From contig CAWASW010000003.1 in the NCBI GenBank assembly GCA_963784785.1, forward strand, positions 51,216 to 115,215: a DNA stretch of 64,000 bases, given 5' to 3'. The position numbers and the translations under genes are program-made. The DNA comes from Candidatus Woesebacteria bacterium. Its GTDB lineage: Bacteria; Patescibacteriota; Microgenomatia; UBA8517. Numbering within the stretch: the first letter of the stretch is position 1; each line of letters starts with the position of its first letter. Positions 5,384-61,204 of the stretch are shown here, piece by piece. The notes under the pieces are model-generated. The model had not been told where the DNA came from. It did not search any database and was given only the letters and a program-made list of their open reading frames with translations.

Positions 5384-6751
5384 TCAAAGAGATTTTTTTA
5401 TCCCCATGATGTCCTCTTGGATATCCACATTAGTTGAGAGTAAATTGGTTATCTTTTCCACAGAGTTCATTACAGTTGAATGATCTCTTCCTACAATCCT
5501 TCCTGTTTCTTGAAGAGACAATCTTAAATATACTCGAAGTAAATACATTACAATCTGCCTTGGCCTTACTATTGGAAGCTGTCTGGAGTCCCCTAGAAGC
5601 TGTCTTTTCCCAATTGAATAGTATTTACATACTTTATTTATTAAATTTTCTGGATCTATTTTTATTCTGACCTCATCTGCCTCACTTGCCTTTCCTAAAA
5701 GTGATTCTATTAATTCTGAAGTCACTTCTTTTTTGTTAAAATTTACTTCTGTAAAGAGTTTAACCAAAAAACCTTGTATTCCTCTAGCTGAATCGATATT
5801 TCCAGCGACCATTGCCACCATTTCGTTTGTCAGCATAATTCCCCTTTCTTCTGACTTAATCTGCACAATGGCTGAACGAAGTTCAAAATCAGGTGGAGCA
5901 ACGTCCACTATTAAACCTGCTTGAAATCTGGTTTTTAATCTTGCTTCTAGTTTTGATATTTCAGTTGGTGGTTTGTCAGAAGTAAGTATTACCTGCCCTC
6001 CAGCTGAGGTGACCGCATTAAAGGTGTGAAAGAATTCTTCTTGTGCAGTATCTTTCCCCGCAATAAACTGAATGTCATCAATAAAAAGGGCGTCAAGTTT
6101 CCTGTATTTTTTACGAACTTCTGCTGTTGTTTTATTTCTGATCCCGTCGACGATATCGTTGGTAAAGTCTTCGGCAGTACAGGCTAAAATTTTGGCTGAA
6201 GTATTTTTTAAAATCATGCTATGCCCTACTGCATGCATTAAATGAGTTTTACCAACTCCAACACCTCCATATATGAAAAGTGGATTATAGGAAACTCCTG
6301 GGTTATCAGCCACAGCTTGTGCAGCTGCATAGGCCATTTGATTACTGCCTGAAACAGCAAATTTATCAAAAGTAAAAAGCATTCTCAAATTTGCTTTTTT
6401 AACGGCCTCATTTACTGCCTCAGTATTAATTTTGGGAATATCAAAAAGAGGAGATAGAGATTCGGAATTAGGATTGAGTTGTTGTTTTGACGCTTTAACT
6501 ACAAAAGTTACGTCCACTATCTTTTCTAGTTGTTTAGTAAGTGTGTCTTGAAATAATCCAGAATATCTCTGTTCTATTTGCTGTTTTGTAAAAATAGAGT
6601 CGCATCCTACCTCTGCAATTATTCTATCCCCTACTTCTTTTAAATCAATTAAATGAGTGTGAGACAAATACGTTTTGTAAGCTGCATCAGAAACAGAAAT
6701 ACGTAAAGTCTCTAGTGTGTCTTTCCAAATCTTGTTAAAATCTTGTTTCAT
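5384..6751 (-). CDS. dnaA: Chromosomal replication initiator protein DnaA
   Basis: Walker A 'GGVGVGKTHLMHAVG', AAA+ box 'LFIDDIQF', and a C-terminal DNA-binding domain. Confidence 0.95.
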   Translation of the reverse strand: MKQDFNKIWKDTLETLRISVSDAAYKTYLSHTHLIDLKEVGDRIIAEVGCDSIFTKQQIEQRYSGLFQDTLTKQLEKIVDVTFVVKASKQQLNPNSESLSPLFDIPKINTEAVNEAVKKANLRMLFTFDKFAVSGSNQMAYAAAQAVADNPGVSYNPLFIYGGVGVGKTHLMHAVGHSMILKNTSAKILACTAEDFTNDIVDGIRNKTTAEVRKKYRKLDALFIDDIQFIAGKDTAQEEFFHTFNAVTSAGGQVILTSDKPPTEISKLEARLKTRFQAGLIVDVAPPDFELRSAIVQIKSEERGIMLTNEMVAMVAGNIDSARGIQGFLVKLFTEVNFNKKEVTSELIESLLGKASEADEVRIKIDPENLINKVCKYYSIGKRQLLGDSRQLPIVRPRQIVMYLLRVYLRLSLQETGRIVGRDHSTVMNSVEKITNLLSTNVDIQEDIMGIKKSL

Positions 6752-6929
6752 AAAAGTAGTACACAGTTAAACTAGTACTTAGTACATAGTACATAGAGAA
6801 AAAAACGAAGAAATAAACATGAGGCAGGTTGCTGTTTCTAAGTACTTTGTACTGTGTACTCTGTACTGCATATATTTACAAAGTTATCCACAATATACAA
6901 GTCCCAAAAAGTTTGCTATACTTGCATCT

Positions 6930-7580: not shown

Positions 7581-8397
7581 TATGAATATCTTTCAAGTTG
7601 TCTTAATACAACCACTAACCAATGGGCTTATTCTGTTTTATAATCTTCTTTGGCAAAACATGGGGCTTGCCATAATTGGATTTAGTTTATTTCTTCGTTT
7701 TGCAACAAATCCACTAACAAAACCATATATGGCCTCTATGAAAAAGATCAAAGAAATAGAACCCTTAATTAAAAAACTTAAGTTAACGTACAAAAATGAT
7801 CAAAAAGGTTTAATGGCAGCTCAAACTGAGCTCTATAAACAAAAAGGAATTAATCCTTCTGCAGGGTGCCTTCCTTATATTCTAAATATTGTGATAATGA
7901 TTGCTTTGTTTAATGTCTTTACTCAGGTTTTGTCTGTAAATGGTGATGCTATGAGTAAATTAAATAATTTACTCTACTCTCCACTTAAAATGTCTGCAAA
8001 TTCTAATTTAAATACCGGATTTTTGTATCTGGACGTCAGAAAGCCAGATGTCTTTAATTTTTCAGGCATTCCATTTCCTATTCCAGGACCTTTTATTATT
8101 CTTGCAGGATTGTTGCAATTTTTGTCAGCTAAAATGATGGCTCCTGTTGTTAAGAAGGAAGAAAAGATTGCCAAAGAAACAAAGGGTGAAGCAGATGATA
8201 TGGCAGTAGCCATGCAATCATCAATGATTTATACATTTCCGTTAATGACTATATTTTTTGGAGTCAAGTTTCCTTCAGGACTTGCATTGTATTGGCTTCT
8301 ATTTTCAATTTTTCAAATGTATCAACAGTACAAATCTTCAGGCTGGGGTGGACTTACCCCTCTTATTCAGAGGTTGGGTCTGAAAAGCAAAAATTAA
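7552..8397 (+). CDS. yidC: Membrane protein insertase YidC/Oxa1 family (short form)
   Basis: Multi-TM with 'GCLPYILNIVIMIALF'. Sits in the rnpA-yidD-yidC-jag context. Confidence 0.85.
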   Translation: MLLVTHGQNNMNIFQVVLIQPLTNGLILFYNLLWQNMGLAIIGFSLFLRFATNPLTKPYMASMKKIKEIEPLIKKLKLTYKNDQKGLMAAQTELYKQKGINPSAGCLPYILNIVIMIALFNVFTQVLSVNGDAMSKLNNLLYSPLKMSANSNLNTGFLYLDVRKPDVFNFSGIPFPIPGPFIILAGLLQFLSAKMMAPVVKKEEKIAKETKGEADDMAVAMQSSMIYTFPLMTIFFGVKFPSGLALYWLLFSIFQMYQQYKSSGWGGLTPLIQRLGLKSKN

Positions 8398-8425
8398 TCT
8401 TATTAATTTTTCGCTAAAGCGGAGC

Positions 8426-8908
8426 TTGCAAAATCGAGGCAATCTTGTAAAATACTTCTACATGAACAAAGAAATCCAAAAGCTTACAGAAGAATTAATC
8501 AAACTTGCTGGTGTTTCGGCACAGGTTGAAGTAATTGACATGGGCGAGAATACTTATGAAGTAAATCTTTCTACAGATGATGAAACAGGATTGTTGATAG
8601 GTTTCAGAGGTGAAAACATTAATGCAATTCAAACTATTTTAGGAATGATGTTAAAGGGACAAACTGGAGAATGGTATAGATTGGTAGTCAATGTTGGAGA
8701 TTATAGAGAGAAACAAGAAGAAAAATTAAAAGAACTTGCAACCCAATCTGCAGATCGCGCTATTGAAACAAAAGAACCTCAACCAATTTATAATTTGAAC
8801 GCAGGACAGAGAAGAACTGTTCATATGCACTTGTCTCAGAGAAACGATATAACTACTGAATCAGAAGGTGTTGAACCAGAAAGATATTTAGTAATTAAAT
8901 CCAAGTAA
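8426..8908 (+). CDS. jag: Jag/KhpB-like RNA-binding protein (KH + R3H)
   Basis: Has the 'GFRGENINAIQ' KH-like motif and an R3H-like C-terminus. Lies downstream of yidC. Confidence 0.7.
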   Translation: MQNRGNLVKYFYMNKEIQKLTEELIKLAGVSAQVEVIDMGENTYEVNLSTDDETGLLIGFRGENINAIQTILGMMLKGQTGEWYRLVVNVGDYREKQEEKLKELATQSADRAIETKEPQPIYNLNAGQRRTVHMHLSQRNDITTESEGVEPERYLVIKSK

Positions 8909-10559: not shown

Positions 10560-13091
10560 ATGATAGTTATGCAAGATTTTGATGCAACTTTAGGGATCTA
10601 TTCAGCCCAATCTGAATTAATAGATAGATTGGAATTGAAGTTTAAAGATAAATATTTAGACGTTTTGGTCTTCGATGACGCCAATAATTCAAGGTTAAAA
10701 GATTTTAATTATTTAATAATAAATTTATTAAACGGAAATACAGATTTTGATTCTATTAAAAAACTTGTAACCGTTAACAACGGCAAGATAATTGTCCTAA
10801 TACCTCTATATGTTGAGTCGGAACAAAAATATATAATAGATACTTTTCTAAGCGACCTGTTAGATACTAACAGTAACCTAGGAGTAATACTTGTACCTGA
10901 GCTATTAGGAAACGGTGTTGAATTCGATAAGAATAATATTTCTCATAGTTTAATAATGCAGTCGTTAGTAAGTGAAAGGGTGAAAATTGTAAATGAAAAC
11001 ATTTTAATAAATACAGTTTCACTAAACAAATTAGTCGATACTGTAGTTAAGGAAATTTTTTCATTTGGAGTTTCAGGAGAACGACTTGCTCTAGTGGGAC
11101 CTAGAAGAAGCCCAAAAAGCTTTTCCGTCAATAATTTAGGAATAGAACCAGAGAATTTGATTGTACAAAATTCGATTCAAAGGAGAGAAGAGCTTATAAG
11201 GACGTCATCTTTAAAAGTAGATTTTTCATTAAATATGGCAGTGAAATCTACTATAAATACATTTTTGCCAAATATAAAGCTTGATGAAAATATAATAAAA
11301 AAAGAAAATCCACTTGTCATACAATATGTTGGAAAAAAGATTTTAAGAAGATTATTTAAAATCTCCCTTTTATTAATTTCAATTATTTCTATTCCGTTAG
11401 TTTCATTGATCGTATCAATCGTCTTGTTGTTTATGTCTACAAGATTCATGTTATTTGATAGTGTTAAGGCACATAAATATATAGATTATTCTCTTAATAC
11501 AATTGAATTTTCAAGAAGAATAAGTTTTAACATTCCTTTCTACTACGATCTTTCCAACATAATTTACAAAAGTGCCTCTCTTTTAAGTGAGGGTATTGAG
11601 CTATCAAAAGTGGGTAGCGAATTCATATCTAGAATTATGGGAGATACTGTATACGATTTGTCATCTTATTCTGATAATATTTCTGCCTCGCTTGATAAAA
11701 TACATACGGATATGAGTTTTTTGCAAAGTGACTTTAACGAACTAAATGGCCTGTCAGGTATATTTTCAAAAAAGATATTGAATAAGGCAAATATAGATAT
11801 CAAAAAAAACAAAGAAAAAGTTCTTCATATCAAGAATTTAGCTTCTCGTCTATCCTATTTACTAGGAATGGAAAGACCTATGAAATATTTGGTATTGTTT
11901 CAGAACAATATGGAACTTAGACCTACTGGCGGTTTTATAGGATCATTTGCTATTTTGTCTTTTGACAAAGGTAGAATGTCGGAAATTGTGGTAAGTGATG
12001 TTTACTCTGCAGATGGCCAATTAAAAGGCCACGTGGACCCACCAGAGCCAATAAGGATCTATTTAGGAGAAGGTGGTTGGTATATGAGAGATTCAAATTG
12101 GGATCCTAATTTTCCTGAAAGCGCTAAAAAAATTGAATGGTTCCTAGAAAAGGAAACAAACACTCAAGTAGATGGGGTAATTGCCATTGACTTATTTTTT
12201 GTACAAAAACTGTTAAGTGTAGTTGGCCCACTGAAACTAAATGACTACAATAAAGTCATCACTCCTGAAAATTTATATTCAAATACTCAAGAAGAAGTAG
12301 AATCTAACTTTTTCCCAGGTTCAATCAAAAAGGCAAGTTTTATTACAGGACTCGCTAAGCAACTCATAACAGAAGTTGAATCAATAAAAAGTGATAAATA
12401 CTTTTCTCTTATAAAGCAGATTTATGATTCATTAGAATCCAAACATATACAAATATATTTACATGATTTAAACTCTCAGGATTCAATCGATAAAATGGGT
12501 TACTCTGGAAGTCTTTTGCTAAACACTGAATGCGGACTCAGATGTTTTAAGGATCAATATTCAGTAATTGATGCAAATCTTGGTGTTAACAAAGCCAATT
12601 TGTTTGTAAAACGTAGTTCAGAAGTCAATTTAACTGTAGGAACAGAGTTTGTAAATCACGAGCTTTTAATTACATACGACAATACTGCAAATCCAGCGCT
12701 TGGTGATGCTGGTTTATACAAGACATACACTAGAGTTATAGTCCCTAACACTTCTAATATCGTCGGAGTCAGATCGTACAACGTTGACGGAGGATTTGAG
12801 GATATTCCTTTTGACATTACAGATTTAAACGGTAATAGAGAAGTTGGATTTTTGATAAAGGTGTTGCCAAATAGCACTGAGAAGATATTGATTTCATGGA
12901 ATATTAACACAGACAAGTTGAAAAATGGTGGTGAATTTGATCTAAGCGTAAGAAAACAGGCTGGTACTGAAAATGACAAATTGACATTAAATATTTCAAA
13001 TAGTGATCTAGCCTTGACTGGAAGGGCACCTTCAGTTTATACTACAGCATTGGACAGAGATTTTAATCTCAAATTATTTTTTAGACCATAA
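10560..13091 (+). CDS. Large membrane-anchored protein (843 aa) with a big extracytoplasmic domain. Function unknown (possibly DUF4012-like).
   Basis: Long ORF with a central TM ('ISLLLISIISIPLVSLIVSIVLLFM') and a C-terminal beta-rich region. Confidence 0.5.
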   Translation: MIVMQDFDATLGIYSAQSELIDRLELKFKDKYLDVLVFDDANNSRLKDFNYLIINLLNGNTDFDSIKKLVTVNNGKIIVLIPLYVESEQKYIIDTFLSDLLDTNSNLGVILVPELLGNGVEFDKNNISHSLIMQSLVSERVKIVNENILINTVSLNKLVDTVVKEIFSFGVSGERLALVGPRRSPKSFSVNNLGIEPENLIVQNSIQRREELIRTSSLKVDFSLNMAVKSTINTFLPNIKLDENIIKKENPLVIQYVGKKILRRLFKISLLLISIISIPLVSLIVSIVLLFMSTRFMLFDSVKAHKYIDYSLNTIEFSRRISFNIPFYYDLSNIIYKSASLLSEGIELSKVGSEFISRIMGDTVYDLSSYSDNISASLDKIHTDMSFLQSDFNELNGLSGIFSKKILNKANIDIKKNKEKVLHIKNLASRLSYLLGMERPMKYLVLFQNNMELRPTGGFIGSFAILSFDKGRMSEIVVSDVYSADGQLKGHVDPPEPIRIYLGEGGWYMRDSNWDPNFPESAKKIEWFLEKETNTQVDGVIAIDLFFVQKLLSVVGPLKLNDYNKVITPENLYSNTQEEVESNFFPGSIKKASFITGLAKQLITEVESIKSDKYFSLIKQIYDSLESKHIQIYLHDLNSQDSIDKMGYSGSLLLNTECGLRCFKDQYSVIDANLGVNKANLFVKRSSEVNLTVGTEFVNHELLITYDNTANPALGDAGLYKTYTRVIVPNTSNIVGVRSYNVDGGFEDIPFDITDLNGNREVGFLIKVLPNSTEKILISWNINTDKLKNGGEFDLSVRKQAGTENDKLTLNISNSDLALTGRAPSVYTTALDRDFNLKLFFRP

Positions 13092-18121: not shown

Positions 18122-18145
18122 ACAATGAAGCTATTTTACCAGTTT

Positions 18146-19559: not shown

Positions 19560-19577
19560 ATTTAAAAAATTATAACA

Positions 19578-23469: not shown

Positions 23470-23531
23470 AACGATAAGAACTGAGCTTACTGCAGAAATA
23501 AATATTCCGAGATAAGTAAAGCTTAATTTCT
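23470..23531. repeat. 62-bp target-site duplication (left copy) of IS1634-like copy 1
   Basis: Identical 62-mer 'aacgataagaactgagcttactgcag...gcttaatttct' at 23470-23531 and 25178-25239. Confidence 0.85.
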
Positions 23532-25177
23532 CCTGACTTCGCCAATTAAGTGCCCTGAATAAAAGATAGAAGTTTGGTATTTTTAAGAAGTTGAAGTTGC
23601 TCTGTTGTTGGTTCTGTAAATTTTGATATTTCTTCATTTGAGATTTTGTCTTTGATAGTAATTTCTTTTAAGCTTGATAGAATTTGTAGTATCTTTTTTG
23701 TGCTTTTGTTGTTTTTAATTTCTGCATATCTTGTAATTGCAAGACTGGTAAAAACAATTAACATGTGGGTTAATATTTTTTCTTTGGCTGTATGAAATAT
23801 TGGTCTAGCTTGGAGGTCTGATTTTGTGATTCTAAATGCCTTTTCAACTTGCCAGAGTTCTTGATATTTGGTAATTATTTCTGTGTTTGTTAATTCTAGT
23901 GCATTTGTAACATAACCTTTTAAGCCTTCAAGCTGTTCTGCTTTTTTAAGTTTAGCTTCATTTATTTTCCATTCTTTTTTAATTCCCTTTTCTTTTTTTA
24001 GAAATTTGTAGTTTTTAGTTAAGTTGCTTGGATTATTTAGTGCATAATTTGCTCTTTTTAATTGTTTTTCTCTGTCTGATTTGTCTTTTGATGCTCTTTT
24101 GACTGAGTAGTTGATAATTAAAAATTTAGTTTTTGTAAGTTCAAATCTTTCTGTAGAGCCATCTATTTTAGGTACACTAATTACTTTTTCAAAAATAGTT
24201 TTGTCTAAATTACCAAGTCTTGCTCCAACTATAAACTTTAAGTTTTCTTTTTCCAATTCATCTGTATTTTTCTCACTTAACATACCAGCATCTGCAACAA
24301 GAATAATGTCTTTCAAGGAATGCTTTTTGATGAGGTCTTTCATTACAGGAAGCATTGTGTGGCCTTCAAAAGTATTTCCTTCAAAAGCCTGCATATGAAC
24401 AGGGAAACCTTGTTTTGTGACTGTTAAGGAAACAACTATTTGAGGTTGATTTGATTTTTTGTCTTTTGAAAAGCCATTTTTTCTAAAATCATCTTCTGTA
24501 AAAGATTCATAATATAAAGTTGTGACATCAAAAAATAAAACTGAAATTACAGATGAAATATTTGTTTTGGCAAAATTAAATAACAAATCCTCAACTATCT
24601 CTTTGTAGCCACCATCAAAGGCTTTTTTCATGCCTCTGTAGATTTCTGTAAGTGAGTATTTGTGATTTAATTTCTCTTCAAGATAATTTCTAGTTTCAAG
24701 TTTTGAAGTTGGATTTAAAATTCTTGCAATAACAAGATCCTTAAAACAATTGTCTTTTAAGTCATTTAAACCTAAAAAATGATAGTAAAAATCAAAAAAA
24801 TTGTAAGAGACAGTATCCATTACTTTGCCAAAAGTTACCTTTGAAAGTAGCTCTTTAAGTTCAGATTGATTAAATCTGTTGTCAAAAAGTGAAATTCTTC
24901 CTTCTTTGATACGACAATCATCAATGTATTTTAAGCCTAATTTTGTAAGTTCAATTAGCTCCAACTCATTTCTTGCAGTTCCAATGTGCTTCACTATTTT
25001 TCTTCTTCCTGAAACTTTTTGGGCAACTTGAACTGATGTATTAGATTTGTTTTTGACCTTTCTTAAGTACATTCAAACCTAATTTTAGCAAATAAAACAG
25101 TAAGTGCCCTAAAGTACATAAAAATACAAACAATTAGCCTCAAGAAGTTACATAAAAACTAGGTTGGCGAAGTCAGG
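23532..25177 (-). mobile_element. IS1634-family (IS4-related) insertion sequence, 1646 bp, copy 1. Has 12-bp terminal IRs (CCTGACTTCGCC) and is flanked by a 62-bp direct repeat of the MFS gene 3' end.
   Basis: Perfect terminal inverted repeats, a long TSD characteristic of IS1634-type elements, and an identical second copy at 44410-46055. Confidence 0.75.
23546..25072 (-). CDS. DDE transposase of the IS1634-like element (508 aa)
   Basis: Identical to the ORF at 44424-45950. Large IS4-superfamily-like transposase. Confidence 0.7.
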   Translation of the reverse strand: MYLRKVKNKSNTSVQVAQKVSGRRKIVKHIGTARNELELIELTKLGLKYIDDCRIKEGRISLFDNRFNQSELKELLSKVTFGKVMDTVSYNFFDFYYHFLGLNDLKDNCFKDLVIARILNPTSKLETRNYLEEKLNHKYSLTEIYRGMKKAFDGGYKEIVEDLLFNFAKTNISSVISVLFFDVTTLYYESFTEDDFRKNGFSKDKKSNQPQIVVSLTVTKQGFPVHMQAFEGNTFEGHTMLPVMKDLIKKHSLKDIILVADAGMLSEKNTDELEKENLKFIVGARLGNLDKTIFEKVISVPKIDGSTERFELTKTKFLIINYSVKRASKDKSDREKQLKRANYALNNPSNLTKNYKFLKKEKGIKKEWKINEAKLKKAEQLEGLKGYVTNALELTNTEIITKYQELWQVEKAFRITKSDLQARPIFHTAKEKILTHMLIVFTSLAITRYAEIKNNKSTKKILQILSSLKEITIKDKISNEEISKFTEPTTEQLQLLKNTKLLSFIQGT

Positions 25178-26377
25178 AACGATAAGAACTGAGCTTACTG
25201 CAGAAATAAATATTCCGAGATAAGTAAAGCTTAATTTCTCACCTACAGCAGTTGTAATAAAACCAGCAATGATTGGACCTAAAATATAACCTAGACTTAC
25301 TGCTGATGATGAAAAACCTAAGAGGTGCCGTTTACTTTTACCCATTCTCCCTAAAAAATCAGATACTACAGCTTGTATTAGAGGATATCCAATTGCTATA
25401 AAAAGGCTAGCTAAAAACGTTATTAATAGTAACAATATTATGTTTTGCTGAAGACCTAAAAAAATCATAAAAACACCCGCGAGCAGAAATAAAAACTCAG
25501 ATACCTTCTTTTTACCTTGATATGGTTTCCACTTTGCAATGATTAGGCCAATAAATAAAGGGGGAAGCATGTATAGAGATAAAAACCATCCACCCCAAAA
25601 GCTTTCAACTGCTAACTTTTCAGTTAATACAGCTCCTGTTGTCCAAAAAAAAGAATCAATAATACCAACCATAAAGCTTAGAATAATCACTGGCCAGATT
25701 CTATAAAACAAAATTCTCCACTTATACATTTCATCTATTATGTTAATCTTTTTAACCTCGATGACTATTTTTGTCGGTTTTCTTTTATAAAATACAAATA
25801 TTCCAATAAGCGCTATTGTTGACATGACGATAGCACTTACACCCATATATTTTTCAGATCTGAGAATTATAATTGGTGCTAAAAGTGGACCTAAAAAATA
25901 GGCAAGATTTTTGAATATTCCTAGTATGCCCCATGCTGATGCGTGTAAATTATAGGGAATGTGACCTGTAACAAATTCTTGATCTGCAAAAGAAAGAAAT
26001 TCATAATATATGCCCCACACGGCCATTGAAAGTAGAAATATAAGTACTAAAGGCCATGACAAACCGAGTATAAGTAATATTGCAAATAGGATTCCTAAAA
26101 TGCACGTTATTAAAAGCATCTTAATAAATGATGTATTTCGAATTATTTGAGGTAAGATTAGATCTGCTAAAAAACCGATTGCTGAGGAAAAGGAAAATAT
26201 TATACCCATTAGCTGAGGACTTCCAAGTTTCTCGCTCATTAAATTAGGGACCCAGAATGATAATATTGAATCAGACATAAAAATGAAGAATGTTATAATT
26301 GCAAAGAGAGCAACGCTTCGCCAGATAGGATTAAATCTTCTGCACATTAATCCCCAGCCTTTAGGCTGGTGGAGCAA
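25148..26377 (-). CDS. MFS transporter. The 3' end is replaced by the IS1634-like insertion; the original C-terminus survives in the left TSD copy (ORF 23398-23637). The predicted N-terminus runs into the IS200 left end.
   Basis: 12-TM MFS-like sequence. The C-terminal 'EKLSFTYLGIFISAVSSVLIV' is duplicated on both sides of the IS. Confidence 0.65.
   Translation of the reverse strand: MLHQPKGWGLMCRRFNPIWRSVALFAIITFFIFMSDSILSFWVPNLMSEKLGSPQLMGIIFSFSSAIGFLADLILPQIIRNTSFIKMLLITCILGILFAILLILGLSWPLVLIFLLSMAVWGIYYEFLSFADQEFVTGHIPYNLHASAWGILGIFKNLAYFLGPLLAPIIILRSEKYMGVSAIVMSTIALIGIFVFYKRKPTKIVIEVKKINIIDEMYKWRILFYRIWPVIILSFMVGIIDSFFWTTGAVLTEKLAVESFWGGWFLSLYMLPPLFIGLIIAKWKPYQGKKKVSEFLFLLAGVFMIFLGLQQNIILLLLITFLASLFIAIGYPLIQAVVSDFLGRMGKSKRHLLGFSSSAVSLGYILGPIIAGFITTAVGEKLSFTYLGIFISAVSSVLIVPDFANLVFM
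25178..25239. repeat. 62-bp target-site duplication (right copy)
   Basis: See the left copy. Confidence 0.85.
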
Positions 26378-26853
26378 GTATAGTTTGTGGCATACTTGAG
26401 GGAAATGTTAAAGTACTGGCATGGTGCACACACAAAGCACAGAATTATGATTCATTTGGTATTTTTACCAAAATACAGAAAAAGGATATTACGTGGCAAA
26501 GTAGCTACAAGACTTAAAGACTTATTCTTCAAAGCATGTGAGGTTAACAACTGGTGGATTGAAGAAATTACAATATTGCATGATCATGTACATATGCTTA
26601 TACAAATCCAACCAAACTTGTCCATCTCAAAAGTTGTTAACCAACTGAAAGGTGGTTCATCAAGAATCTTAAGGAAAGAATTTCCAGAGTTAGAAGAATT
26701 TCTTTGGGGTGACTCATTCTGGTCTGATGGCTACTTTGCAGAATCAGTGGGTGCAACAAGTTTCATCCAGGTTAAAAAATACATTAAAAATCAAGTGGAA
26801 AGTATGCCACAGAAGGGGTAAAACCATGGCATTTATGCCATGTGTTTTTTATT
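26331..26853 (+). mobile_element. IS200/IS605-family element (TnpA only), copy 1, ~523 bp
   Basis: Left-end hairpin CCAGCC-TTTA-GGCTGG and right-end hairpin CATGGCAT-TT-ATGCCATG. Three identical copies are in the window. Confidence 0.8.
26387..26821 (+). CDS. tnpA: IS200-type HUH (Y1) transposase TnpA
   Basis: 'ILHDHVHMLIQ' HUH motif and the catalytic Tyr in 'SDGYFAESVG'. 144 aa. Confidence 0.9.
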   Translation: MAYLREMLKYWHGAHTKHRIMIHLVFLPKYRKRILRGKVATRLKDLFFKACEVNNWWIEEITILHDHVHMLIQIQPNLSISKVVNQLKGGSSRILRKEFPELEEFLWGDSFWSDGYFAESVGATSFIQVKKYIKNQVESMPQKG

Positions 26854-27044
26854 GATTTGTTGTTTTTCGTTAAAATAATAACACTTTCGTCCGATTACTC
26901 GGACAATGCTGAAATTGGTTGTAGAAGCGTTTACTTAGTGAAACTACCTTTTTAGGCCGAAAGTATAGTAAAATCAGTGTGTTTTAGGAGACCGAAATGT
27001 AACGGTCTCGTAATTTACACCGTTCATATTTGTCTCCTTGTTTG

Positions 27045-27300
27045 ATGAATTTACTTTGATTTTTCAATTTTGATCAGGATGTCTCGAACAAGAACATAGA
27101 CAAAGAACATCCAAAGCAAAAAGCCACCCCAATGACATAATCTCACGATGTTGTCTCGCCACTCGAGTTCGAGATAATCCCGATCGATGACAAGATCGAA
27201 CACGCGATTTTGTATGCCAAAGGGTCCACCATCTGATGAGGTAACAATCTGAATTACAAATCAGTTAATTGCAAGGCTTGCAAAATAGATAGTAAAAATA
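27045..27300 (-). pseudogene. Broken small membrane-protein gene. A 21-codon ORF (MENVLFVVGGIFTIYFASLAIN) is followed after an in-frame TGA by ~75 more in-frame codons (...FGIQNRVFDLVIDRDYLELEWRDNIVRLCHWGGFLLWMFFVYVLV...).
   Basis: Manual translation of the minus strand. The segment is not in the ORF track because it is split by the TGA. Confidence 0.3.
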
Positions 27301-27539
27301 CCTCCGACTACAAACAAAACGTTTTCCATAATCTTTCTCCTTTTAAGTTGGTTGAATAAGTAGAACTTTAAACACTAAACAAATATTCAAAATACTACTT
27401 ACCAATCATAAGTAAAAAGAGATAAACAATTCTGCAATTTTAAAGTGCAAGAAACAAAACTAAAAAAATACAAATCAGAGAAACTATAAGTAGCAAATTG
27501 AACTCTAATTTCTCAAAATTTGTATCGTAATACTAGCAT

Positions 27540-27910
27540 CATTTCATCAGTTAGTCCATGTTTAATGTCCAATTTTGTCCCAACGGCTAGCCGTTAACCG
27601 TCCGCTGGACGGTAACACGGACAAAAGGCCGTAAATACGGCCAGTTAACGGAGTCGATGGACCATCTTCCTGACACCGTTAACTACCCGTCAGGAGCCCG
27701 CAGGCGAACTGACTATAAACCCCCTTTTCCTTTCAATTGGGTTAGCGAACCCCACGAAGTGGGGTGAGCGCAAAGCTCGGCTTTGCTGTGTTAAGCGAAG
27801 CCACGCAGTGGCTGAGCGAACAAACCCGAGCGCGTAGCGCATGACCGAGGCTCCGCAACAATTCCTTCCCCTTTGACCCCTCCCTTGTTGCTCCGCACAA
27901 CAACTCAAAA
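27540..27910. other. GC-rich, highly base-paired non-coding island (candidate structured RNA of unknown class)
   Basis: GC content is far above the surrounding ~32%. Contains nested hairpins (CCGTCC-GCTG-GACGG, GGCCGTA-AA-TACGGCC, CCCCAC-GAA-GTGGGG, GCCAC-GCA-GTGGC, GCAAAGC-TCGG-CTTTGC). There is no ORF of 60 aa or more on the + strand. Confidence 0.4.
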
Positions 27911-27955
27911 ATTTGTGATAAAATAGGTTCGAGCCAAACTGTAAATACGCGCAGG

Positions 27956-28672
27956 ATGAAAATAATTTTTCTTAATTGTTATAGTGGTCATCTTGAAAAA
28001 GCACTTTTGGATTTTATTTCACTTGTGAATGAAGATGCTGACATTTTATGTTTTCAAGAAGTTTCTGTGAGTTTAGAAAAAAAGATTTCTCATATTTTGG
28101 TAAATTATTCAAAATCCTTTGAAATAGGTTTTTTACTTTCGGACTGCAACGAAGAAGCGGGTCAAGCAATTTACGTCAAAAAGGATCTTGCTATCATAAA
28201 ATCTGAAAAGATATTGCTACACGAATTAAAAATGAGGGATATTGGTTTTTTACTAAAGGTTGATATCAAGATAAAAAACAAAATATTATCTGTGGGTAAT
28301 GTGCACGGAACTGCTGCACCTGGTGATAAGAAAGATACAGATTCTAGAATTGAGCAATCAAATTTGATTTTAAATAGTTTCGAAACTAAAGGGAATATAA
28401 TAATTGGTGGAGACTTCAACTTGTTGCGCAATACACAAAGTGTAGAAGTATTCGAGAAACTAGGGTATAAAAATTTAATTAATGATTTTAATATTAAGTC
28501 CACAAGAAATAATATTGCTTGGGAAAGATTCAAAAATGATCCTGGTTTTGTAAAACAGTTTGACTCAGATTATATTTTTGCTTCAGATGGTATAAAAATA
28601 AAAAGTTTTGAAGTGCCTGATGTCGAAGTCTCCGATCACCTACCTCTAATTTTAGAGTTTGAAGTTTCTTGA
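27956..28672 (+). CDS. Endonuclease/exonuclease/phosphatase (EEP) family protein
   Basis: 'IIGGDFNLL' and the C-terminal 'SDHLPL' EEP motifs. Confidence 0.7.
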   Translation: MKIIFLNCYSGHLEKALLDFISLVNEDADILCFQEVSVSLEKKISHILVNYSKSFEIGFLLSDCNEEAGQAIYVKKDLAIIKSEKILLHELKMRDIGFLLKVDIKIKNKILSVGNVHGTAAPGDKKDTDSRIEQSNLILNSFETKGNIIIGGDFNLLRNTQSVEVFEKLGYKNLINDFNIKSTRNNIAWERFKNDPGFVKQFDSDYIFASDGIKIKSFEVPDVEVSDHLPLILEFEVS

Positions 28673-31012: not shown

Positions 31013-31042
31013 ACCTTTGTTTCTGATGATATAATCTCCTTA

Positions 31043-37723: not shown

Positions 37724-39086
37724 TTTCTTCTTCAAGCTTTGGAAGATTTATATCGGTGATACCCAGTTCTTTTTCTACCTTTTCCTTAAAATTAATTCTA
37801 GAATGATCATCTCCGTGTGTGAGAACTAATTTCTTAACTCCTTTAATTGCTTTTAACCATTCAAAAAGTTGAGATTGATCTGCGTGCGAGCTTAGACCTT
37901 GAGTATCGTGGACTGATCCGTTCACTAATACTTTTTGACCATCAATTATAACTTCTGTTTTGCCATTTAGTAGTTCTCTGCCGAGGGATCCTTCGCCTTG
38001 ATATCCTACGATCATTAATCTTGTCGATTTCAAAGGTAAATAATAAATTGCATGACCTACTATTCTTCCTCCTGTCATCATTCCTGCCCCTGCAATTATT
38101 ACTTTCGCTTCTTGCCTTTGGTGTAGCGCTTGGCTGGCTCTCCAATCCTTGGTTACTTCAAGTCCTGGAAAATCAAACATTTCACCTAATTTATATTCTG
38201 CTTCAATGTGCGGATTAAAATATTTTGGATAATCAACATAAATTTTAGTTGCTTTCTCGGCCATCGGGCTATCCAATATAATTGGTGTTTCGTTTAAAAC
38301 TTTTCCCTCCTTTTTTAAATGCATAATCATATGCAGTAGTTCCTGTGCTCTATCTAGAGAAAAGGAAGGGATAAGCAGAGTTCCTCCGTTAATTTCAATA
38401 GCATTTATTTCTGATTGCAAAGCTTCAATTGGACTTTCCACTGGATGAAGCCTATCTCCATAGGTTGTTTCCATAACCACAGCGTCGCTTGAAGTTAAAA
38501 ACTCAGTTTTATCCTCCAGATATGCTGGAAAATTTCCAATGTCTCCGCTAAATACAATTTTTTTGATATCGGTTGTAGCTTTTGTATCGGTAACTGAAAG
38601 GGAAGCAGCTCCTAATATGTGACCAGCATCATATAATGTAGCTATAAAGTCTCCAATATGAATCTCTTGATGGTATTCAATCACAACAAAATGTTTAACC
38701 AGATCAATAACATCTTTGGTTGAATAAAGAATACTTCGTCCAGAGGACGATCGTCCTCTGGACGAATCTTCCTTTGCAATTTTTGCGCTATCCAAAAGAG
38801 AAAGCTCTGCAAGATCTCTGGTTGGAGGAGTCATATAGATATTGCCACTAAAACCTTTTTGCATAACAATCGGCAGTCTTCCACAGTGATCTAAATGAGC
38901 GTGAGTTAGGATAATTCCTGATAACTTAGAGATATCGAAATCAAAAGGTTCGTAATTTAATTTCTCAATTTCTGGTGGACCTTGAAACATACCTAAATCA
39001 ATTAAAATTGATTGTCCTGAATCTGATGTTAAAACATATGAAGATCCAGTTACTGTCCCAGCCGCACCGAGAAATTTTACTTTCAT
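37713..39086 (-). CDS. MBL-fold beta-CASP family hydrolase (RNase J/CPSF-like ribonuclease)
   Basis: 'HAHLDHCG' (HxHxDH) plus beta-CASP and C-terminal His motifs. 457 aa. Confidence 0.7.
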   Translation of the reverse strand: MKVKFLGAAGTVTGSSYVLTSDSGQSILIDLGMFQGPPEIEKLNYEPFDFDISKLSGIILTHAHLDHCGRLPIVMQKGFSGNIYMTPPTRDLAELSLLDSAKIAKEDSSRGRSSSGRSILYSTKDVIDLVKHFVVIEYHQEIHIGDFIATLYDAGHILGAASLSVTDTKATTDIKKIVFSGDIGNFPAYLEDKTEFLTSSDAVVMETTYGDRLHPVESPIEALQSEINAIEINGGTLLIPSFSLDRAQELLHMIMHLKKEGKVLNETPIILDSPMAEKATKIYVDYPKYFNPHIEAEYKLGEMFDFPGLEVTKDWRASQALHQRQEAKVIIAGAGMMTGGRIVGHAIYYLPLKSTRLMIVGYQGEGSLGRELLNGKTEVIIDGQKVLVNGSVHDTQGLSSHADQSQLFEWLKAIKGVKKLVLTHGDDHSRINFKEKVEKELGITDINLPKLEEEITL

Positions 39087-44013: not shown

Positions 44014-44409
44014 GCTTAATAGCATAGTGTGTTGATATAACAGAAAGATATAGTTGATAATACGCCTCATTTTGAGTTTGAATAGTATTCAATGGGTCAA
44101 AGAACACTTTTGTGCATATCCTGTAATAGTAAAATGTTTCTGTGGGGAAAGACTGGAACTGGAAAGAAAAGATGGTTTTGTAAAGTTTGTAAAACTTCAA
44201 GAATTTACCACAATAAAAAGAAAGATTTTAAAGTAGTTGATCTTTTCAGACAGTATATTTTGTGGGGTTTGACATATGAAATGCTGTCTTCTGTCTCAGG
44301 TTTGTCTGTAAGATATTTGGAGGGTGAATTTCATAAGTTATTGCTTCTTGATCCTCCAAAACTTCCTAGATTTGATCAAACTTTGTCTGGAAGAATTGAT
44401 ACTGCATAT

Positions 44410-46055
44410 CCTGACTTCGCCAATTAAGTGCCCTGAATAAAAGATAGAAGTTTGGTATTTTTAAGAAGTTGAAGTTGCTCTGTTGTTGGTTCTGTAAATT
44501 TTGATATTTCTTCATTTGAGATTTTGTCTTTGATAGTAATTTCTTTTAAGCTTGATAGAATTTGTAGTATCTTTTTTGTGCTTTTGTTGTTTTTAATTTC
44601 TGCATATCTTGTAATTGCAAGACTGGTAAAAACAATTAACATGTGGGTTAATATTTTTTCTTTGGCTGTATGAAATATTGGTCTAGCTTGGAGGTCTGAT
44701 TTTGTGATTCTAAATGCCTTTTCAACTTGCCAGAGTTCTTGATATTTGGTAATTATTTCTGTGTTTGTTAATTCTAGTGCATTTGTAACATAACCTTTTA
44801 AGCCTTCAAGCTGTTCTGCTTTTTTAAGTTTAGCTTCATTTATTTTCCATTCTTTTTTAATTCCCTTTTCTTTTTTTAGAAATTTGTAGTTTTTAGTTAA
44901 GTTGCTTGGATTATTTAGTGCATAATTTGCTCTTTTTAATTGTTTTTCTCTGTCTGATTTGTCTTTTGATGCTCTTTTGACTGAGTAGTTGATAATTAAA
45001 AATTTAGTTTTTGTAAGTTCAAATCTTTCTGTAGAGCCATCTATTTTAGGTACACTAATTACTTTTTCAAAAATAGTTTTGTCTAAATTACCAAGTCTTG
45101 CTCCAACTATAAACTTTAAGTTTTCTTTTTCCAATTCATCTGTATTTTTCTCACTTAACATACCAGCATCTGCAACAAGAATAATGTCTTTCAAGGAATG
45201 CTTTTTGATGAGGTCTTTCATTACAGGAAGCATTGTGTGGCCTTCAAAAGTATTTCCTTCAAAAGCCTGCATATGAACAGGGAAACCTTGTTTTGTGACT
45301 GTTAAGGAAACAACTATTTGAGGTTGATTTGATTTTTTGTCTTTTGAAAAGCCATTTTTTCTAAAATCATCTTCTGTAAAAGATTCATAATATAAAGTTG
45401 TGACATCAAAAAATAAAACTGAAATTACAGATGAAATATTTGTTTTGGCAAAATTAAATAACAAATCCTCAACTATCTCTTTGTAGCCACCATCAAAGGC
45501 TTTTTTCATGCCTCTGTAGATTTCTGTAAGTGAGTATTTGTGATTTAATTTCTCTTCAAGATAATTTCTAGTTTCAAGTTTTGAAGTTGGATTTAAAATT
45601 CTTGCAATAACAAGATCCTTAAAACAATTGTCTTTTAAGTCATTTAAACCTAAAAAATGATAGTAAAAATCAAAAAAATTGTAAGAGACAGTATCCATTA
45701 CTTTGCCAAAAGTTACCTTTGAAAGTAGCTCTTTAAGTTCAGATTGATTAAATCTGTTGTCAAAAAGTGAAATTCTTCCTTCTTTGATACGACAATCATC
45801 AATGTATTTTAAGCCTAATTTTGTAAGTTCAATTAGCTCCAACTCATTTCTTGCAGTTCCAATGTGCTTCACTATTTTTCTTCTTCCTGAAACTTTTTGG
45901 GCAACTTGAACTGATGTATTAGATTTGTTTTTGACCTTTCTTAAGTACATTCAAACCTAATTTTAGCAAATAAAACAGTAAGTGCCCTAAAGTACATAAA
46001 AATACAAACAATTAGCCTCAAGAAGTTACATAAAAACTAGGTTGGCGAAGTCAGG
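44410..46055 (-). mobile_element. IS1634-family IS copy 2 (1646 bp), nested in the IS1-like element with a 52-bp TSD (44358-44409 and 46056-46107)
   Basis: CCTGACTTCGCC IRs and an identical 508-aa transposase (44424-45950). The 52-mer 'aaaacttcctagatttgatc...gatactgcatat' is duplicated. Confidence 0.75.
44424..45950 (-). CDS. DDE transposase of IS1634-like copy 2
   Basis: 100% identical to the 23546-25072 product. Confidence 0.7.
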   Translation of the reverse strand: MYLRKVKNKSNTSVQVAQKVSGRRKIVKHIGTARNELELIELTKLGLKYIDDCRIKEGRISLFDNRFNQSELKELLSKVTFGKVMDTVSYNFFDFYYHFLGLNDLKDNCFKDLVIARILNPTSKLETRNYLEEKLNHKYSLTEIYRGMKKAFDGGYKEIVEDLLFNFAKTNISSVISVLFFDVTTLYYESFTEDDFRKNGFSKDKKSNQPQIVVSLTVTKQGFPVHMQAFEGNTFEGHTMLPVMKDLIKKHSLKDIILVADAGMLSEKNTDELEKENLKFIVGARLGNLDKTIFEKVISVPKIDGSTERFELTKTKFLIINYSVKRASKDKSDREKQLKRANYALNNPSNLTKNYKFLKKEKGIKKEWKINEAKLKKAEQLEGLKGYVTNALELTNTEIITKYQELWQVEKAFRITKSDLQARPIFHTAKEKILTHMLIVFTSLAITRYAEIKNNKSTKKILQILSSLKEITIKDKISNEEISKFTEPTTEQLQLLKNTKLLSFIQGT

Positions 46056-49410: not shown

Positions 49411-49933
49411 TTAAATCTTCTGCACATTAATCCCCAGCCTTTAGGCTGGTGGAGCAAGTATAGTTTGTGGCATACTTGAGGGAAATGTTAAAGTACTGGC
49501 ATGGTGCACACACAAAGCACAGAATTATGATTCATTTGGTATTTTTACCAAAATACAGAAAAAGGATATTACGTGGCAAAGTAGCTACAAGACTTAAAGA
49601 CTTATTCTTCAAAGCATGTGAGGTTAACAACTGGTGGATTGAAGAAATTACAATATTGCATGATCATGTACATATGCTTATACAAATCCAACCAAACTTG
49701 TCCATCTCAAAAGTTGTTAACCAACTGAAAGGTGGTTCATCAAGAATCTTAAGGAAAGAATTTCCAGAGTTAGAAGAATTTCTTTGGGGTGACTCATTCT
49801 GGTCTGATGGCTACTTTGCAGAATCAGTGGGTGCAACAAGTTTCATCCAGGTTAAAAAATACATTAAAAATCAAGTGGAAAGTATGCCACAGAAGGGGTA
49901 AAACCATGGCATTTATGCCATGTGTTTTTTATT
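49411..49933 (+). mobile_element. IS200/IS605-family element copy 2
   Basis: Identical to copy 1 over ~523 bp. TnpA is at 49467-49901. Confidence 0.8.
49467..49901 (+). CDS. tnpA: IS200-type transposase TnpA
   Basis: Identical 144-aa product. Confidence 0.9.
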   Translation: MAYLREMLKYWHGAHTKHRIMIHLVFLPKYRKRILRGKVATRLKDLFFKACEVNNWWIEEITILHDHVHMLIQIQPNLSISKVVNQLKGGSSRILRKEFPELEEFLWGDSFWSDGYFAESVGATSFIQVKKYIKNQVESMPQKG

Positions 49934-50437: not shown

Positions 50438-50476
50438 TGGTTTTTGACAAGTCAGATTGCACTGAGCTTGCCGAAG

Positions 50477-50761
50477 TGCTCCTCGGGCACGATTCGAACG
50501 TGCAACCTTGATCTTACAATTCCCCTCTTGTTACCAAAAGGATTGGACTATCTCATCATCAAAAAATTGATGTCAGGTATATAGTCTCTACACATTTATC
50601 ATTCGACTTCGCTCATGACGAGTTGGTCAAACAAATTTAGCTCGGGATTGACCAAAAATTAATTTGGCGTTCCCCGAATTAGCCTGATTTTTCTTTCCCA
50701 CTTCACAATGAGATGCTGCCATCTAAAACAGGATCCTGCTCTGCCGTTGAGCTACCGAGGA
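50477..50761 (-). tRNA. tRNA-Asn(GUU) split by a ~211-nt intervening sequence in the anticodon loop (5' exon 50728-50761, 3' exon 50477-50516)
   Basis: Exons read UCCUCGG-UA-GCUC-AACGGCA-GAGC-A-GGAUC-CUGU|UAA-GAUCA-AGGUU-GCACG-UUCGAAU-CGUGC-CCGAGGA-G. The anticodon loop CUGUUAA is identical to bacterial tRNA-Asn and the T-loop is canonical. Confidence 0.6.
50517..50727 (-). ncRNA. Putative group I intron inside tRNA-Asn
   Basis: Follows an exon U, with an internal GCAG that can pair with exon CUGU (U·G at the splice site). Ends in G. Contains GGGAAAG (P-like), AAUCAGGC (Q-like), AGAGACUAUA (R-like) and GAUAGUCC (S-like) giving a GACUA/UAGUC P7. Confidence 0.5.
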
Positions 50762-50795
50762 TTATAATTAAAAAGAGCAAGGCTATTATACCATT

Positions 50796-51318
50796 TTAAA
50801 TCTTCTGCACATTAATCCCCAGCCTTTAGGCTGGTGGAGCAAGTATAGTTTGTGGCATACTTGAGGGAAATGTTAAAGTACTGGCATGGTGCACACACAA
50901 AGCACAGAATTATGATTCATTTGGTATTTTTACCAAAATACAGAAAAAGGATATTACGTGGCAAAGTAGCTACAAGACTTAAAGACTTATTCTTCAAAGC
51001 ATGTGAGGTTAACAACTGGTGGATTGAAGAAATTACAATATTGCATGATCATGTACATATGCTTATACAAATCCAACCAAACTTGTCCATCTCAAAAGTT
51101 GTTAACCAACTGAAAGGTGGTTCATCAAGAATCTTAAGGAAAGAATTTCCAGAGTTAGAAGAATTTCTTTGGGGTGACTCATTCTGGTCTGATGGCTACT
51201 TTGCAGAATCAGTGGGTGCAACAAGTTTCATCCAGGTTAAAAAATACATTAAAAATCAAGTGGAAAGTATGCCACAGAAGGGGTAAAACCATGGCATTTA
51301 TGCCATGTGTTTTTTATT
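50796..51318 (+). mobile_element. IS200/IS605-family element copy 3
   Basis: Identical to copies 1 and 2. TnpA is at 50852-51286. It lies 34 bp from the tRNA 5' end and ~25 bp from the IS481-like right IR. Confidence 0.8.
50852..51286 (+). CDS. tnpA: IS200-type transposase TnpA
   Basis: Identical 144-aa product. Confidence 0.9.
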   Translation: MAYLREMLKYWHGAHTKHRIMIHLVFLPKYRKRILRGKVATRLKDLFFKACEVNNWWIEEITILHDHVHMLIQIQPNLSISKVVNQLKGGSSRILRKEFPELEEFLWGDSFWSDGYFAESVGATSFIQVKKYIKNQVESMPQKG

Positions 51319-61157: not shown

Positions 61158-61204
61158 ACTTTAATTATACCAAGAGAACATATAATATGTATGTATACTG
61201 CTCT

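Follow-up and report, generated by a model that had tools for sequence, protein, structure and literature searches.

A GC-rich island in a Candidatus Woesebacteria contig as a candidate 5′-truncated copy of an undescribed structured RNA element

Results

Bacteria have few large, intricately folded RNAs whose function is unknown, and OLE, ROOL, GOLLD and raiA have each opened new biology, the latest being RNA-only cages. We analyzed a 64-kb stretch of contig CAWASW010000003.1 from a Candidatus Woesebacteria bacterium (the window; all window coordinates are on this stretch), in which a GC-rich, hairpin-dense island lies between a copy of the insertion sequence (IS) IS200 and an EEP (Exo_endo_phos) gene. 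Proceeding from the IS200 copy towards the island, one encounters a terminator-like hairpin, a small minus-strand open reading frame (ORF) and an AT-rich intergenic segment; past the island, the EEP gene is followed by a metallophosphoesterase-like ORF, dnaG and rpoD (Table 1). The comparative evidence described below makes it likely that the island is a 5′-truncated copy of an undescribed structured RNA element of Microgenomates/Woesebacteria-like bacteria of the candidate phyla radiation (CPR).

Across the whole window, a G+C content of at least 0.50 over 150 nucleotides (nt) is reached only at 27529-27967, where it peaks at 0.607, more than 5 standard deviations above the mean (mean 0.335, standard deviation 0.05); the second-highest 150-nt value is 0.49. 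Positions 27554-27953 contain 52.5% G+C (0.517 in 27554-27733 and 0.532 in 27734-27953), the flank at 27330-27553 has 0.25 and the EEP gene 0.30. This exceptional composition, remarked upon in an earlier note made from the letters of the window alone, is thus borne out by our profiles, one of which was computed over 100 nt. Every hairpin quoted in that note is present, and nine of the 37 short GC-rich hairpin calls of the window start within 27.5-27.9 kb. The plus strand of the island lacks any ORF of at least 60 amino acids, and the minus strand carries ORFs of 72 (27690-27908) and 53 (27742-27903) amino acids, the former as previously described. Folding of 27560-27920 yields z = -5.4 on the plus strand, where none of 100 shuffled sequences folds as well, and z = -3.2 on the minus strand.

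The element was found in 17 other loci, belonging to low-GC CPR/Microgenomates-like genomes and groundwater metagenomes. Scanning of genome contigs with a degenerate pattern based on a thrice-repeated CCGTTAAC motif returned four true homologs, namely L005 (Candidatus Woesebacteria GW2011_GWB1_33_38), L020, L026 and L031, and scanning of metagenomes with a core 20-mer returned 13 loci, mostly from groundwater (L048-L060); of these, L048, L049, L054, L057 and L058 belong to assemblies from the Hainich wells H41, H43 and H51. All of these homologs reside in DNA of 33-41% G+C. Homology to the window spans 27554/27564 to about 27950 at 77-96% identity, the closest copies being L057 (95.7% over its 92 aligned nt) and L048 (84% over 325 nt). 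Public records label L020, L026, L031 and P0004 as ‘Gammaproteobacteria’ or ‘Alphaproteobacteria’; the three L contigs have 33-36% G+C, and gene content, with genes and IS shared with CPR loci, suggests that these labels may be unreliable.

Complete copies measure 570-580 nt and fall into three parts: a 5′ domain of ~250 nt (P1-P6), a three-way-junction domain in the centre (P7-P10) and, at the 3′ end, a module of ~220 nt. One full-length copy lies at L049:10917-11497. Hardly any variation is seen in the P7-P9 core across all homologs. At most loci the conserved, GC-rich and hairpin-dense region reaches ~250 nt further upstream than it does in the window, and the two most similar copies, L057 and L048, do carry the 5′ domain. 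When aligned to a profile built from four complete copies (~588 positions), the window matches positions 209-586 only, and the full copies match 2-589. Homology to the full-length relatives breaks at 27553/27554, and because a BLAST search of the entire 64 kb does not recover the 5′ domain, we conclude that the window copy is 5′-truncated at this junction. A second copy of the element was likewise not found in the window, either with the profile hidden Markov model or with a core covariance model applied with all filters disabled. The island recognized in the earlier note is therefore only the 3′ two thirds of a ~575-nt element, the last 220 nt of which is a separable repeat module with a promoter-like motif.

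Disrupted and divergent copies also occur among the homologs. The 5′ domain is strongly diverged in L005, L050 and L052, giving the family two very different 5′ forms, and the copies in L051, L053 and L060 are cut inside hairpin P7b by an IS4-like element. A divergent second core copy that lacks the outer helix P7 is present at L055:1301-1407 on the plus strand (33.6 bits with the core model), followed by TGTGATATAAT and the remnant of a serine-recombinase N-terminus. Two candidate features of the element were rejected. The direct repeat CTCAAAA(A)TTTGT (27512 and 27904) was considered as a target-site duplication, and local alignment of the left flank to the element scores 18-22 versus a null mean of 20, the level of shuffled sequence. 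The CCGTTAAC triple motif was considered as a protein-binding array; 39 of its 43 genome matches are unrelated GTTAAC tandem repeats, and the CCGTTAAC copies in the RNA family are strands of P7a and P9.

To assess base pairing, we used a covariation set of only 13-18 related sequences, collected with exact-word seeds from the core, and defined 77 pairs in 12 helices for the part of the element retained in the window. In these helices 87% of alignment cells are paired, compared with 30-44% when the partners are slid by 1-3 columns, and double-sided changes occur in 14 pairs, versus 7.3 in shuffles (0 of 500 shuffles reached as high a value). Covariation is found in P10, H1, H4 and P9x. P10 is rebuilt from wholly different sequences across lineages, H4 alternates between GCAACAA/UUGUUGC and CAUUCUCCAA/UUGGAGAAUG, and in L031-type copies H1 is replaced by a helix that alternates G-C pairs with tandem G-A pairs. 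The 5′ domain contributes a further 56 consensus pairs, 11 of them with double-sided changes, and a complete copy folds with z = -8.9 on the plus strand and -6.0 on the minus strand. G-U pairs outnumber A-C mismatches by 13:1 in the well-aligned 3′ helices and by 39:8 in the 5′ domain, and GUAA, GACA and GGAA loops are read on the plus strand. Taken together, the compensatory changes, the G-U excess, the GNRA loops and the stacked tandem G-A pairs favour an RNA read from the plus strand.

The earlier description of the island as a structured, non-coding RNA-like element thus stands, with conservation and covariation in relatives, and its alternative proposal of simply foreign GC-rich DNA is not supported. 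The pseudoknot that the note proposed between CCTGAC and GTCAGG has to be abandoned, as GTCAGG belongs to a separate covarying hairpin, P10, of which it is the 5′ strand; the proposed pairing has no covariation support and is impossible in homologs whose loop contains CCCGTAT. Comparison of the sequences by eye showed no covariation for two other long-range pairings, one joining the -10 block to the 5′ strand of P7 and the other joining the P9 loop to the 5′ domain.

The 3′ module also occurs without the rest of the element, at L049:1045-1246, at L054:89-283 and, in degenerate form, at L049:11598-11759. Each of the first two is exactly identical to the module of the main copy in the same genome (202 nt in L049, 1045-1246 versus 11290-11491; 195 nt in L054, 89-283 versus 8289-8483), and the two genomes differ from each other by 13%. 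Identity within each genome combined with 13% divergence between genomes therefore indicates concerted evolution. In both L049 and L054 the extra copy comes after an orthologous SNase gene and lies 8-10 kb from the main copy, in the opposite orientation. Genes for large serine recombinases (Resolvase, Recombinase and Zn_ribbon_recom domains) begin 85-190 nt past the module at three places, namely the main copy of L054, L052 and the second copy of L049, and are preceded by a conserved ~150-nt arm. Because the recombinase genes and the conserved arm begin right after it at these three loci, the 3′ end of the module behaves as an integration site. Which module copy has the recombinase next to it differs between L049 and L054, as would fit integration at either of two equivalent sites or an inversion of the DNA between the copies.

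The module ends in a conserved block, AAATTTGTGRTAAAATARGTTCGAGCC, and in the window its promoter-like motif includes TGnTAWAAT at 27916-27924, 31 nt before the EEP ATG, which itself lies 3 nt past the end of the module. The window holds 16 other TGnTAWAAT sites; seven are placed 6-11 nt before the ATG of an ORF of at least 200 amino acids, dnaG included (two of these seven come from the two copies of a single IS), and one more is ~20 nt ahead of an intron-bearing tRNA gene. Given these positions just before the start codons of long ORFs and a tRNA, TGnTAWAAT looks like the promoter type of this organism, used mostly for leaderless mRNAs. Example sites near ATGs are 31027-31035, 61164-61172, 25082-25090, 19569-19577, 18133-18141 and 11693-11701.

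What follows the homologs varies: some precede tRNAs, others a serine recombinase, a guanylate-kinase-like gene or a gene in convergent orientation. In L005/L050, L026/L055 and L049 a same-strand tRNA gene lies 13-40 nt past the element; in L026 the tRNA is the lone same-strand gene downstream and is followed by a convergent gene. All-versus-all BLASTP of the ORFs within 3.5 kb of the element revealed no gene common to all loci. A specific linkage to EEP was rejected, the element being absent upstream of EEP orthologs at 63-70% identity that share EEP-dnaG-rpoD synteny, and so was a linkage to the guanylate-kinase-like gene of L031, relatives of which also lack the element. Searches of viral contigs with four exact patterns and of phage and plasmid records with BLAST gave no matches, and on these null results a phage or plasmid origin was rejected.

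We next compared the element with known RNA families using the 4227 covariance models of Rfam 15, both at the gathering score and at a lenient E ≤ 10. At the gathering score, the sole match in the window is a group I intron at 50524-50739, and eight homolog loci match only tRNAs. At E ≤ 10, positions 26800-28100 return only microRNA-like hairpin noise, and one full-length copy, from L049, returns only the neighbouring tRNA and noise; models of RNase P, the signal recognition particle (SRP), transfer-messenger RNA (tmRNA), 6S RNA and introns gave no match at this threshold in short-window scans with lax filters. The failure of the earlier note to place the island by eye among known families is thus repeated by the covariance models. 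The strands of the RNase P P4 helix, GGAAAGUCC and ACAGAA, are essentially absent from the window and from five full or partial members; the one exception is an isolated ACAGAA at position 10 of the type-B copy L050, which lacks the other motifs. The family members examined have no tmRNA CCACCA end, no group II domain 5 and no GUGYG motif, and ARAGORN finds no tmRNA in the window or in the homolog loci and a normal tmRNA in the related locus L003. The element is intergenic, unlike introns, which lie inside a host gene. A literature search uncovered no large non-coding RNA described for CPR bacteria.

The remaining features of the locus concern its neighbours (Table 1). EEP homologs come from Woesebacteria-type CPR bacteria. 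Two syntenic relatives with the order EEP-dnaG-rpoD (L001, EEP identity 70%; L003, 63%) have tRNA-Ser(GGA) directly before EEP (L001:1457-1541; L003:3872-3960) and no GC-rich island, and ARAGORN does not detect this tRNA before the EEP gene of the window. Compared with L001, the window has the metallophosphoesterase-like ORF (646 amino acids) and a 106-amino-acid ORF inserted between EEP and dnaG. A tandem repeat with a 19-nt unit, ATCTCATAGCGTGAGCTGA, occupies the start of the L001 locus (1-145), upstream of the syntenic EEP region.

On the other side of the island, the small minus-strand ORF was correctly described before as broken by an in-frame TGA, although its span is that given in Table 1 and not 27045-27300. 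TGA is an ordinary stop in the host genome, where it terminates 7 of 31 long ORFs, and the small ORF, for which no Pfam match was found, is probably a pseudogene or two mini-ORFs. The AT-rich segment that separates it from the island has homologs in the intergenic DNA of L055 (about 1000-1240) and L049 (about 6550-6790) and contains two conserved boxes, ATTCYGCAATTTTAAAGTGCAAGAAAC at 27429-27455 and AACTATAAGT at 27482-27491. This segment adjoins the ribosome-binding region of a minus-strand gene, and in L055 a partial copy of the RNA core also comes after it.

The window is rich in mobile DNA. It contains three exactly identical 523-bp copies of IS200, which encode TnpA only, at 26331-26853, 49411-49933 and 50796-51318; the first either adjoins or interrupts the beginning of an MFS transporter gene (25148-26377, minus strand). 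An IS4-like element with a DDE transposase is present in two copies, in the 23470-25240 region and at 44409-45470. The first is bracketed by two exact copies of a 63-nt stretch, at 23470-23532 and 25178-25240, the latter within the 3′ end of the MFS gene, and a 53-nt end of the element matches the end of metagenome contig L049 at 98% identity. Elsewhere, the group I intron (Rfam RF00028, 76.6 bits) interrupts a minus-strand tRNA gene at 50463-50765, whose exon sequences CCTCGGTAGCTCAACGGCAGAGCAGGATCC and GGTTGCACGTTCGAATCGTGCCCGAGGA lie on either side of the intron; a promoter-like TGGTATAAT motif and the third IS200 copy are immediately upstream. ARAGORN reports no tRNA anywhere in the window. 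The longest GC-rich hairpin of the window is a perfect 14-bp palindrome, TTCGTCCAGAGGAC-GATC-GTCCTCTGGACGAA, at 38735-38766.

Table 1. Coordinates of the truncated element and of the features that flank it in the window.
Feature	Coordinates	Strand	Remark
GTCCGA-TTAC-TCGGAC hairpin	26889-26904	-	Terminator-like, downstream of the small broken ORF; outside the conserved element
Small ORF with two hydrophobic segments	27048-27329	-	92 codons; in-frame TGA at 27261-27263
AT-rich intergenic segment	27330-27553	.	25% G+C; unrelated to the RNA family
Central domain	27554-27733	+	P7-P10 plus C/U-rich linker 27719-27733
P7	27573-27580/27619-27626	+	Closes the three-way junction with P7a and P7b
P7a	27582-27586/27591-27595	+	Arm of the three-way junction
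P7b	27597-27603/27607-27613	+	Arm of the three-way junction
P8	27627-27632/27637-27642	+	
P9	27643-27651/27676-27684	+	Extension 27653-27655/27672-27674
P10	27689-27693/27709-27713	+	Inner stem 27696-27698/27703-27705
3′ module	27734-27953	+	H1-H4, conserved block and terminal hairpin region
H1	27745-27769	+	GC-GA-A[stem]U-GA-GC hairpin with tandem G-A pairs
H2	27770-27786	+	
H3	27795-27817	+	GC-GA-A[stem]U-GA-GC hairpin with tandem G-A pairs
Mini-hairpin	27830-27840	+	Window copy only
H4	27855-27861/27885-27891	+	Encloses 23-nt C/U-rich loop 27862-27884
Extended -10-like TGTGATAAAAT	27914-27924	+	Conserved block after H4
TTCGAGCC	27928-27935	+	Conserved block after H4
Terminal hairpin region	27932-27953	+	Degenerate in the window copy
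EEP (Exo_endo_phos) gene	27956-28672	+	Neighbour, outside the RNA family

Discussion

The comparisons described above indicate that the island upstream of the EEP gene is one damaged member of a family that is probably a new class of large non-coding RNA. A 120-nt core that shows virtually no variation between lineages with only about 50-70% protein identity would make the family a strong candidate for a new functional RNA class, and CPR genomes are tiny, with little room for non-essential sequence. We hold with about even confidence a more detailed picture, in which the family is an ornate and modular ~575-nt non-coding RNA of CPR/Microgenomates bacteria, made together with tRNAs and built around a near-invariant three-way-junction core, and in which the 3′ module is subject to gene conversion and serves as a landing site for serine recombinases.

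If so, members of the family would be transcribed on the plus strand as a stable large non-coding RNA. Where a tRNA follows within 13-40 nt, the two could be co-transcribed, and cleavage by RNase P at the 5′ end of the tRNA would free the RNA. The invariant P7-P9 core may constitute its working centre, for example a surface for partner binding or assembly. The 3′ module would be a portable unit in which H1-H4 end or stabilize the upstream transcript and transcription of the next unit begins from the extended -10 motif TGTGATAAAAT. In the window, the front of the RNA gene was probably lost by rearrangement in this IS-rich region, leaving a remnant that would supply a promoter and a ~24-nt leader to the EEP-phosphoesterase genes in the place held elsewhere by tRNA-Ser(GGA). 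The remnant probably no longer makes a complete RNA, and its main role today is probably that of a promoter and leader for the EEP operon.

Several observations weigh against this interpretation. Owing to the extreme conservation of the core, most of its pairs show no variation and are uninformative, and part of that invariance reflects ascertainment, both scans having required exact core words. Transcription, RNA ends and strand are all inferred from sequence. A consensus promoter scan did not flag 27914-27924, where a -35 element is absent; TGnTAWAAT is not enriched window-wide (17 sites versus 16.8 expected), and no canonical terminator follows the element. The genome may hold a complete copy elsewhere, or the 5′ domain may be dispensable, the 5′ regions of L005, L050 and L052 being very different. 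Finally, the module occurs alone and with abutting recombinase genes, so a role at the level of DNA is possible.

This last point leads to the first of two alternatives that we regard as unlikely, albeit weaker rather than contradicted. The element could be a DNA-level recombination target or scar, that is, an attachment region of a serine recombinase or a set of inversion repeats, with hairpins that represent dyad-symmetric sites and a window copy that is a leftover. The serine recombinase genes 85-190 nt past the module (L054 main copy, L052, L049 second copy) argue for it, as do the identical inverted modules that flank an 8-10 kb segment beside a recombinase, the IS4-like insertion within the element in L051, L053 and L060, and the truncation of the window copy in an IS-rich region. 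However, attachment sites of serine recombinases are about 40-50 bp long and not 575 nt, and the compensatory changes, GNRA loops, G-A tandems and strand-biased G-U pairs span the whole element, far from the junctions. Most copies, moreover, lack a nearby recombinase, and use as an integration target is compatible with an RNA gene, as tRNA and tmRNA genes illustrate.

We judge equally improbable a purely regulatory cassette devoid of independent RNA function, be it a promoter with a structured upstream or leader region or a terminator-promoter unit. Such a cassette would be consistent with the conservation of the extended -10 motif and of the TTCGAGCC block near the 3′ terminus, as it would with genes or tRNAs that begin 3-40 nt past the element, the promoter-like behaviour of TGnTAWAAT in the host genome, and module-only copies placed between an SNase gene and the next unit. 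A cassette may explain the 220-nt module, but not the ~350 nt of covarying, near-invariant helices upstream of it, nor L026, whose same-strand downstream gene is a tRNA only, ahead of a convergent gene. Both alternatives are weaker than the reading of the element as an RNA family.

The comparative data contradict three further explanations. That the element is a highly diverged housekeeping RNA, most plausibly RNase P RNA, is very improbable. CPR RNase P RNAs are diverged and escape default Rfam thresholds (PMC8172020), and the size, very conserved core and tRNA proximity of the element are all compatible with one. However, these diverged RNAs are still recovered with RF00010 (PMC8172020), and the element matches no RNase P, tmRNA, SRP, 6S or intron model at E ≤ 10. 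The GGAAAGUCC P4 motif, the tmRNA CCACCA end and group II domain 5 are missing, with ACAGAA found only as the lone instance in L050; a related genome (L003) has a normal tmRNA, and an essential single-copy RNA is not expected to be truncated by deletion or by an IS. Still less probable is a cis-acting riboswitch or leader of the EEP/phosphoesterase operon, as the earlier note had proposed. The element does abut the EEP start codon; however, EEP orthologs (63-70% identity, with EEP-dnaG-rpoD synteny) have tRNA-Ser(GGA) there and no element, its homologs precede unrelated genes or tRNAs, and relatives of the guanylate-kinase-like gene lack it as well.

IS200/IS605 elements use DNA hairpins and guide RNAs, and IS200 copy 1 ends 700 nt upstream of the island, but a non-coding element related to them (a PATE- or REP-like hairpin cluster or a guide-RNA gene) is the least probable explanation of all, given that the other two IS200 copies in the window lack the island, that no other window repeat matches it and its single copy in 64 kb is not the dispersal typical of such elements, that no IS200 was seen beside the homologs whose flanking ORFs were scanned, that no HEARO or omega-RNA model matches, and that no TnpB or IscB gene is present in the window.

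The structured RNA element shares traits with several known systems and differs from each. RNase P RNA (RF00010/RF00011) resembles it in having a housekeeping-like conserved core and a connection to tRNAs; the element, however, has neither the P4, CR-I and CR-V motifs nor even a weak match, and its copies are truncated and disrupted. The recombinase-bearing elements located exactly at the 3′ end of a conserved sequence, at three loci, recall integration into tRNA and tmRNA genes, although in this case the enzymes belong to the large serine recombinases and the target does not resemble a tRNA. OLE (RF01071) is similar in its ~600 nt and in its highly conserved stretches among covarying helices, but is tied in Bacillota to oapA/B/C genes, none of which occurs at the loci of the element, and RF01071 does not match. 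GOLLD (RF01998) is likewise large, ornate and tRNA-adjacent, with one half more variable than the other; it is, however, ~800 nt long and phage-linked, RF01998 gives no match at E ≤ 10, and the variable half of the element is the 5′ domain, which exists in two very different forms.

ROOL (RF03087), an RNA whose function is unknown and which is typically found beside tRNA genes (PMC5737381, PMC12286853), offers a further parallel, with ~580 nt, many helices, GNRA loops and tRNA adjacency. The last trait, common to ROOL and GOLLD, is seen in L005/L050, L026/L055 and L049, and not in the window copy. Even so, RF03087 gives no match at E ≤ 10, ROOL hosts are Bacillota and phages whereas the element belongs to CPR groundwater bacteria and is found in no viral contig or phage record, and the element has a separable 3′ module that is kept identical between copies. 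If our interpretation is true, the family would rank with OLE, ROOL and GOLLD, as an RNA of probable importance in organisms with minimal genomes.

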